Positions 41,540 to 42,976 of a DNA stretch of 64,000 nucleotides are shown one piece after another (within the stretch, counting starts at the first letter, position 1; each line of letters starts with the position of its first letter). This DNA comes from Escherichia phage vB-Eco-KMB38, in sequence record OR525701.1; one strand, written 5' to 3'. Below the pieces are notes generated by a model, which was given only the letters and a program-made list of their open reading frames with translations, ran no database searches and had not been told where the DNA came from. A program made the position numbers and the translations under genes.

Positions 41540-41571
41540 ATCTTTATGAAATATTTTTATGCCCTAGATAC

Positions 41572-41605
41572 CAAAAAGCCCCAACCGTAAGGAAGGGGCA
41601 TTCTA
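41572..41605 (-). terminator. intrinsic terminator (variant of the repeated hairpin)
   Basis: gcccc-ttccttacggtt-ggggc hairpin then U run on minus transcript. Confidence 0.55.
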
Positions 41606-42070: not shown

Positions 42071-42115
42071 GTTGCTTTTCCTAAGTTAATTAACTTATCT
42101 ATTTATTATTATACC

Positions 42116-42143
42116 AAAAAGCCCCAACCTTTCGGAAGGGGCT
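42116..42143 (-). terminator. intrinsic terminator (third identical copy of the hairpin repeat)
   Basis: aaaaagccccaacctttcggaaggggct identical to 25945 and 26568 copies. Confidence 0.55.
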
Positions 42144-42149
42144 AAGCCT

Positions 42150-42456
42150 TGCGGCAACCTTGTCGGGGTTCCACCTGCTAAGGCAAGTGTTTGTACGAAA
42201 CGCCGGGATTCGAACCCGGTTATTAAGTAGTTGACGCTACTCAATATTTTTAAAAGGCCATATCTCGACCATATCCGAACGTTCCGTCAAAAACGCTACT
42301 CGGCTTACGGCAAAGATATTTCCTCGAATCGATAATTCTGTGCGCCGTTTCTGCTGTGAGATAAGGGACTTTAAGATGTCAACTCATGTACGCCTTAAAG
42401 TCGGGTCTTATTCAGGGAACATCAGTCCGACGACTTGCCGGTAGCGACCCGGCTTC
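42150..42456 (-). ncRNA. putative stable small RNA(s) with tRNA-like T-arm
   Basis: About 300 bp with no ORF and high GC for this genome; minus strand has canonical CCGGG-TTCGAAT-CCCGG T-arm and a 7-bp acceptor-like pairing. Confidence 0.4.
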
Positions 42457-42801
42457 TTATTTTGGCATATCATCAATTTGCTCTCGACGCCGACGCCATA
42501 GATTAATCGCTTCATTAACACATTCGGCGTTTGGTATATGACGGCAATAATATAATGATTCACGTTTCTGGAACCGATGTTGCAACGGGATTTCGTTTAA
42601 AAGGTCTTTACGGTCAAAGTATTCAAAACTAGTTAACCCAGAACGGTTTTTAATGAACTTCCAATGTCCAAATTCATTTTGAACATAGATGTAATCGGCA
42701 TGCTGATACAGCGAATTAATCAATCGATGAGAAATAACTGTATCATATTCGTTAAAATAAAACGTTAAATCATGAACTACCAGATAAACATTGCCTTTCA
42801 T
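42457..42801 (-). CDS. hypothetical protein
   Basis: ORF 42457-42849 trimmed to the internal Met so it does not overlap tRNA-Arg. Confidence 0.45.
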   Translation of the reverse strand: MKGNVYLVVHDLTFYFNEYDTVISHRLINSLYQHADYIYVQNEFGHWKFIKNRSGLTSFEYFDRKDLLNEIPLQHRFQKRESLYYCRHIPNAECVNEAINLWRRRREQIDDMPK

Positions 42802-42902: not shown

Positions 42903-42976
42903 TGACCCAGACCAGATTCGAACTGGTAACCTTTCCCTTATGAGGGGACTGCTGCTAACCGTTGAGCTACAGGGCC
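42903..42976 (-). tRNA. tRNA with anticodon CAT (Met, or Ile2 if lysidine-modified)
   Basis: GGCCCTGTAGCTCAACGGTTAGC...CCTCATAAGG...ACCAG-TTCGAAT-CTGGT; anticodon loop CTCATAA; D-stem pairing imperfect by hand. Confidence 0.6.

Follow-up and report, generated by a model that had tools for sequence, protein, structure and literature searches.

What is encoded by the GC-rich, apparently non-coding stretch that lies beside the tRNA genes of Escherichia phage vB-Eco-KMB38 (OR525701.1)? The segment occupies positions 42150–42456 of the 64,000-nucleotide stretch of DNA analysed here (the window). An earlier interpretation, made from the letters alone (the sequence-only reading), had proposed for it either a counterpart of the two stable RNAs of phage T4 or a degenerate tRNA with a long variable arm. 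Based on the results below, we suggest, with a probability of about 0.88, that positions 42460–42116 of the minus strand are the 3′ end of a tRNA operon that encodes orthologs of T4 rnaD and rnaC, this estimate covering the identity of the two RNAs and their biogenesis jointly. The structured RNA locus is real, but it is already known in T4.

Composition and surroundings of the segment

The GC content of 42150–42456 is 48.2% against a window mean of 37.4% (sd 3.1%, 307-nt windows). Only 0.2% of the 307-nt windows are as GC-rich, and the value is the maximum of the whole stretch, so that the elevated GC content described from the sequence was confirmed. The absence of an ORF was confirmed as well: the segment contains just mechanical ORFs of 34–51 aa on both strands, none of them credible and none conserved as coding.

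All neighbouring genes are located on the minus strand. In the 5′ to 3′ direction of this strand, tRNA(CAU) and tRNA-Arg(UCU) are followed by a 114-codon ORF, the non-coding stretch, a terminator hairpin and the next gene. The following features were assigned to the locus:

42976–42903, minus strand: tRNA(CAU), called by ARAGORN and Rfam, upstream in the same minus-strand unit
42896–42820, minus strand: tRNA-Arg(UCU), called by ARAGORN and Rfam, upstream in the same minus-strand unit
42457–42801, minus strand: 114-codon ORF, phrog_3355 (unknown function), between tRNA-Arg and rnaD
42339–42460, minus strand: rnaD ortholog (T4 species 2 RNA), ~122 nt, from alignment to T4 rnaD (L001:1729–1846)
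42333–42338, minus strand: 6-nt spacer GAAUUA between rnaD and rnaC, from alignment with T4
42194–42332, minus strand: rnaC ortholog (T4 species 1 RNA), 139 nt, 138/139 identical to the T4 feature L001:1584–1722
42144–42193, minus strand: GC-rich 3′ trailer, 50 nt, 56% GC, with small hairpins, between rnaC and the terminator
42116–42143, minus strand: intrinsic terminator of the tRNA/rnaD/rnaC unit, a hairpin followed by UUUUU

Both flanks named by the sequence-only reading were found, namely a terminator (a minus-strand hairpin with a U-run, 42143–42116) and a small ORF that ends at 42457. The stem of the terminator has an internal mismatch, and for this reason it was missed by the sigma-70/terminator scanner. 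Two terminator hairpins of almost the same sequence (AAAAAGCCCC...GGGGC, read on the plus strand), at 41571–41600 and 42114–42143, close consecutive minus-strand units. No T4 late-promoter motif (TATAAATA) was present near the locus, and the count of this motif across the window was at chance level.

A PHROG search with the flanking ORFs returned only families of unknown function. The 114-codon ORF (42457–42801, minus strand) is 'RB69ORF150c'-like, and its TAA stop overlaps nucleotides 2–4 of rnaD. In T4, tRNA-Arg abuts rnaD directly, without an intervening ORF. Since the stop codon lies within the first four nucleotides of rnaD in KMB38, the 5′ end of this RNA must form differently here. The tRNA(CAU) gene (42903–42976, minus strand) was assigned to Met by ARAGORN and is given in the Bas47 record as tRNA-Ile reading AUA (lysidine type).

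Correspondence to the stable RNAs of T4

The species 1 and species 2 RNAs of T4 have been known and sequenced since the 1970s. According to older work (1970s–80s), a species 2–species 1 dimer reportedly accumulates in RNase P-deficient cells, and an RNase III site is said to lie 3′ of species 1. The T4 tRNA cluster forms one precursor of ~1.75 kb, which ends after the species I gene. Besides the RNAs of species I and II, eight tRNAs are derived from it, and T4 does not depend on the region (PMC2330249). Both RNAs (RNAC and RNAD) accumulate late, and their presence was confirmed by northern blot (PMC9697503). In a 2025 study, a T4-like phage was evolved on host ECOR34, and all of its lines converged on one rnaD SNP (PMC12685909).

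The window belongs to a Mosigvirus and shows 100% identity to two members of Mosigvirus phapec2, Escherichia phages PTK and AlbertHofmann (Bas47). Queried by BLAST, the 371 nt around the segment matched ~800 T4-like phages. In T4 (MT984581), the same query gave a ~90% match covering the annotated rnaC, rnaD and tRNA-Arg. The comparison with the T4 stable RNA sequences, which the sequence-only reading had put forward as a check, matched both genes, and the idea of a counterpart was upheld by a base-for-base alignment with T4 rnaD and rnaC (MT984581). The ends of the RNAs in KMB38 were transferred from the T4 annotation. As in T4, only a 6-nt spacer separates rnaD from the rnaC gene that follows it. 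The rnaC gene closes the 3′ end of the tRNA cluster on the tRNA strand, after rnaD and before the trailer and terminator, and the trailer (42144–42193) is nearly identical in T4. In rnaD, the 5′ 50 nt and the 3′ 25 nt are nearly identical to T4, and the centre is not alignable.

A scan of Rfam 15, which was likewise a well-chosen check of the sequence-only reading, returned no family for the segment in either gathering or E-value mode, for the sole reason that Rfam contains none for rnaC or rnaD. This does not speak against a structured RNA, which stands on the covarying folds described below. The state of annotation in related genomes is uneven. In the Bas47 record, 42071–42456 is unannotated, and the RB69 record has nothing at the locus. 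In the records of PTK and of many Tequatrovirus phages, 'hypothetical protein' CDSs are placed here on either strand. Miscalls also occur, among them 'tRNA-Met' in PG7, 'tRNA-OTHER' in G9062 and, in some records, 'terminator' over the rnaD 5′ hairpin. The two RNA genes are properly named in a few T4-type records only.

Small protein-coding genes, as given in many GenBank records, would agree with the CDS features of PTK and many Tequatrovirus phages and with the mechanical ORFs of 34–51 aa. However, these ORFs vary between records and fall on both strands, substitutions are paired across helices and do not follow codon position, and the curated T4 records annotate RNAs, which northern blots detect (PMC9697503). 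We therefore consider a coding function to be next to negligible in probability, and the segment is treated below as the rnaD/rnaC locus.

Folds of rnaC and rnaD

The following structural elements were assigned within the two RNAs:

42325–42331, minus strand: 5′ strand of the acceptor-like stem of rnaC (nt 2–8), pairs with 42202–42196
42285–42290, minus strand: kiss partner 1, UUGACG (rnaC nt 43–48), apical loop of the long arm, complementary to nt 97–102 in 25/25
42231–42236, minus strand: kiss partner 2, CGUCAA (rnaC nt 97–102), apical loop of the 10-bp hairpin, covaries with nt 43–48
42203–42219, minus strand: T-arm CCGGG UUCGAAU CCCGG (rnaC nt 114–130), 100% of cells paired, 2/5 pairs compensatory
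42196–42202, minus strand: 3′ strand of the acceptor-like stem of rnaC (nt 131–137), directly abuts the T-arm
42437–42453, minus strand: rnaD 5′ hairpin, 5-bp stem and invariant 7-nt loop GUCGCUA, seen by covariation
42340–42347, minus strand: rnaD 3′ strand CGGCGCAC, pairs with GUCGUCG (42434–42428) and closes the long rod

The homologs of rnaC were aligned (A2), and a covariance model (R1) was built from them. In the window, R1 gave a single match, to rnaC, with 169.8 bits. The minimum free energy of rnaC is −50.2 kcal/mol (z = −4.9). When the fold was applied to 25 distinct homologs, taken from several genera of T4-like phages and from Klebsiella phages that are unclassified, 94% of the cells were paired and compensatory changes occurred in 27 of the 48 pairs. 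In the controls, sliding the 3′ partners by 1–3 columns left 36–44% paired, and shuffling (n = 500) gave a mean of 11.5 compensatory pairs, with 0/500 shuffles reaching 27. Taken at the level of sequence comparison, this supports a tRNA-shaped four-way junction for rnaC.

The T-arm described by the sequence-only reading, CCGGG-UUCGAAU-CCCGG, is indeed present on the minus strand at 42219–42203. It is contiguous with the acceptor-like stem, and both helices covary. This terminal stem comprises 7 bp, in which A4-U135 becomes G-C in 14/25 sequences. The two U.U mismatches of the stem are conserved and are replaced by U-A and C-G in Tegunavirus. The remaining arms are a long composite arm (nt 10–77, ~68 nt) and a 10-bp hairpin (nt 87–112, 26 nt), and in all 25 homologs the apical loops of these two arms form 6 bp with one another (UUGACG with CGUCAA). 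Double changes in this loop–loop contact have arisen independently in Tegunavirus (UUGAUG/CAUCAA, C-G to U-A) and in Klebsiella phages (UUGGCG/CGCCAA, A-U to G-C). Since the kiss is absent from R1 and the alignment was not fitted to it, the covariation of the two loops is an independent test. Homologs of 42194–42332 with a changed kiss are located at L339:401–543, L340:400–542 and L005:601–742.

After the acceptor-like stem, rnaC continues with a tail UACAA, conserved as GU(A/U/C)CAA, and CCA is not encoded. The homologs from Kanagawavirus and Winklervirus have a non-canonical T-loop (UGCAUGC or UGCAUUC), and the case for any function that depends on a genuine tRNA elbow is weaker for this reason.

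The same T-arm had led to the proposal of a degenerate or unusual tRNA with a long arm, whose acceptor stem would be formed by 42287–42280 and 42202–42195. The strand that follows the T-arm (CGUUUCGU, 42202–42195) can pair with ACGGAACG (42287–42280), ~85 nt upstream, and to this extent the proposal holds: an 8-bp pairing is possible in KMB38. It is also used by the best Rfam tRNA match, a weak one to tRNA-Sec (42195–42287, 17 bits against a gathering score of 47, E = 3.1). A pairing of the same type gave rise to ARAGORN's tRNA-Met call in PG7, where ARAGORN and the depositors alike called the homolog a 95-nt 'tRNA-Met'. However, this helix does not covary, as it shows no compensatory change and has an A.C mismatch in 8/17 homologs, whereas the competing 5′-terminal stem does; the strand that follows the T-arm in fact pairs with the rnaC 5′ end (42331–42325). 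The segment required for the helix is already taken by the kissing loop and a covarying stem, and the 45 nt that would have to be discarded show high conservation and are engaged in pairs with other parts of rnaC. Furthermore, ARAGORN found no tRNA in 42150–42460, and no Rfam tRNA model reached its threshold. A degenerate tRNA with a long variable arm is thus very unlikely, and the four-way junction of rnaC is retained.

For rnaD, 21 sequences were compared, including one from Escherichia phage A5-4. In the consensus fold 98% of the cells were paired and 7/23 pairs were compensatory, and 0/500 shuffles were as good. The minimum free energy is −36.2 kcal/mol (z = −2.4), and the fold of the window's own sequence agrees with the consensus. 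These data support an rnaD molecule in which a hairpin is followed by a long irregular rod that joins the 5′ and 3′ parts and bears an exchangeable tip. The rod consists of three helices. The order of 5′ hairpin, closing rod and apical hairpin is shared with the homologs, and the apical hairpin is variable: three unrelated versions exist among the relatives, of which KMB38 carries the 'window type'.

Of the two further GC-rich stems seen by the sequence-only reading, gccgg...ccggc is the stem of the rnaD 5′ hairpin (42453–42437) and covaries by both A-U to G-C and C-G to A-U changes. Its closing pair is A-U in 13, G-C in 6 and G-U in 2 sequences, and in phage A5-4 its third pair is A-U in place of C-G. 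The other stem, gtcgg...ccgac, was present in neither the minimum-free-energy nor the consensus fold. The helix predicted to close the rod (42340–42347/42434–42428) shows just one-sided changes, from G-C to G-U, which are consistent with this pairing but do not prove it. An asymmetric internal loop, GACUGA/GAAA (42421–42427 with 42348–42351), lies between covarying helices of rnaD and is invariant in 21/21 sequences; it may be a protein-binding motif.

The folds also bear on whether rnaC and rnaD act as small RNAs that regulate host or phage mRNAs by base pairing. Such a role would fit the label 'small regulatory RNAs', which the literature gives without evidence, and the invariant stretches of rnaD, for example GGACUGAUGUUCCCUG. 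The convergent rnaD SNP suggests a host-specific effect (PMC12685909), which would also be in line with it. However, the most conserved nucleotides of both RNAs are buried in covarying helices or in the kiss, and we regard regulation by base pairing as improbable.

Distribution, biogenesis and comparison with known systems

Homologs of rnaC without rnaD were found between the tRNA genes of Karamvirus, Kanagawavirus, Winklervirus, Tegunavirus and Gelderlandvirus, as well as in T4-like phages of Klebsiella for which no genus is recorded. In these other genera, rnaC is located 4–6 nt after the CCA end of a tRNA and just before the next tRNA, which is a tRNA-like spacing. The reverse arrangement is known from phage CUA3 (L140), where rnaD is present without rnaC and runs straight into the GC-rich trailer, as though rnaC had been cut out with precision. 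Yersinia phage vB_YenM_P8 (L148) likewise carries rnaD and then no rnaC. The two genes behave as independent modules. Because they occur independently of each other, a shared function is not required.

An rnaD-like element was found directly after tRNA-Tyr in Escherichia phage A5-4 (L142:203–323), a member of Vequintavirinae, outside Straboviridae. This suggests horizontal transfer of the rnaD module from one tRNA cluster to another among myoviruses that are not related. Elements of this kind were also observed in W70, DCP80 and Pectobacterium phage DU_PP_IV.

A stricter pattern scan combined with R1 found no homolog in bacterial genomes, and in metagenomes it matched only close copies of T4-like type; distant relatives could have escaped, since a match to the pattern depends on the conserved loop motifs. 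A loose pattern scan of viral contigs gave almost only chance matches, and R1 found no significant match in 37 loose-pattern loci (L024–L060), which served as negative background. The exact rnaD core pattern occurred at only three loci in viral contigs. A weak second R1 match (23.5 bits) with two T-arm-like hairpins was noted at L103:1073–1188 (minus strand) of a Karamvirus-like contig and could represent a further tRNA-like element or a pair of tRNAs.

The position of the segment in KMB38, at the operon 3′ end beside a structured trailer and terminator, could also mean that it acts solely in cis on the 3′ processing or stability of this operon's transcript, where it would shield the RNA from exonucleases or guide its processing, without a trans function. 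The region is dispensable in laboratory hosts (PMC2330249), and a trans function has never been found (PMC3014915). However, rnaC is mid-cluster and not terminal in the other genera, the T4 RNAs accumulate as discrete stable species (PMC9697503), and the conservation of the kiss, of arm lengths and of loop sequences goes far beyond the needs of a protective 3′ hairpin. We consider a purely cis-acting element unlikely, with slightly lower odds than for the regulatory small RNAs discussed above.

For the rnaD and rnaC orthologs, we propose the following pathway, drawn from the T4 literature and the anatomy of the locus. Both RNAs would be co-transcribed with the tRNAs and then excised by host tRNA-processing enzymes. 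The stack of the rnaC terminal stem and T-arm (12 bp) may serve as the minimal unit recognized by RNase P and the 3′-trimming enzymes. In papers of the 1970s–80s, both RNAs are reported to be released by RNase P and RNase III. The fit of rnaC to RNase P is imperfect, since the stem has two U.U mismatches and the annotated 5′ end lies 1 nt outside it. The accumulation of the RNA would be explained by its closed, kissed fold, which probably leaves few accessible single strands.

As to function, rnaC has neither a free anticodon-like loop nor an encoded CCA and hence is not a decoder. It is possible, although we hold this only tentatively, that rnaC is a tRNA mimic which would occupy or recruit a host or phage tRNA-binding factor. 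Since the phage can do without this region in laboratory hosts, such a role would be accessory and would depend on the host. The idea of a decoy is argued from the shape of the RNA and carries low confidence. For rnaD, the convergent SNP on ECOR34 hints at a role in host range (PMC12685909). A broader and rather doubtful proposal joins these points. In it, rnaC would represent a distinct tRNA-shaped, kiss-locked family outside Rfam, spread over at least seven T4-like genera and Klebsiella T4-like phages, and would act as a decoy or adaptor for a host tRNA-binding factor, e.g., a tRNA-directed defence or a tRNA-processing enzyme; rnaD would be a separate, horizontally moving module, including in Vequintavirinae, that tunes host range.

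The locus itself is a rediscovery, and what is added here is its annotation and a testable fold. Both RNAs are missing from Rfam and are unannotated or mis-annotated in most genome records. The comparative folds of rnaC, with its covarying kiss, and of rnaD give concrete mutations and probes, by which the old question of the role of these RNAs becomes testable in the BASEL phage collection.

Among known systems, the tRNA-like domain of tmRNA and YrlA (Y-RNA-like) present an acceptor/T-arm mimic on a different body to tRNA enzymes. At most rnaC works alike and is not a member of either group, as it has no Ro-binding helix and no tag ORF. For tmRNA there was no ARAGORN call and no Rfam match in the segment, and the sole YrlA match falls on genuine tRNAs. 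A tmRNA was rejected as an identity for the locus on ARAGORN finding none.

With a canonical tRNA (RF00005), rnaC shares a 7-bp terminal stem abutting a 5-bp T-stem, the UUCGAAU loop, the four-way junction, the location in a tRNA cluster and the tRNA-like spacing. In contrast, it is 139 nt long, and lacks a D-arm, a 7-nt anticodon loop and an encoded CCA. Its two other arms, one of ~68 nt and the other a 10-bp hairpin whose loop has 6 nt, are tied by the kiss.

The closest counterparts are those of T4. T4 rnaD (species 2 or species II RNA, 118 nt) has the 5′ hairpin, the closing helices, the invariant GUCGUCGGACUGAUGUUCCCUG segment and the 3′ CACAGCAGAAACGGCGCAC segment in common with the window. 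It differs in the apical hairpin of ~45 nt, which is swapped for an unrelated sequence that still forms a hairpin, and in the 3′ end (...GCGCACCA in T4 and ...GCGCACAG in the window). At the level of the locus, the spacer is of the same 6-nt length with 5/6 bases identical, the trailer is near-identical and the terminator is of the same type, whereas in KMB38 an ORF parts the rnaD/rnaC pair from tRNA-Arg. With T4 rnaC (species 1 or species I RNA, 139 nt), the KMB38 gene, although unannotated, shares 138/139 nt, the strand and the position after rnaD, and nothing material differs within the RNA.
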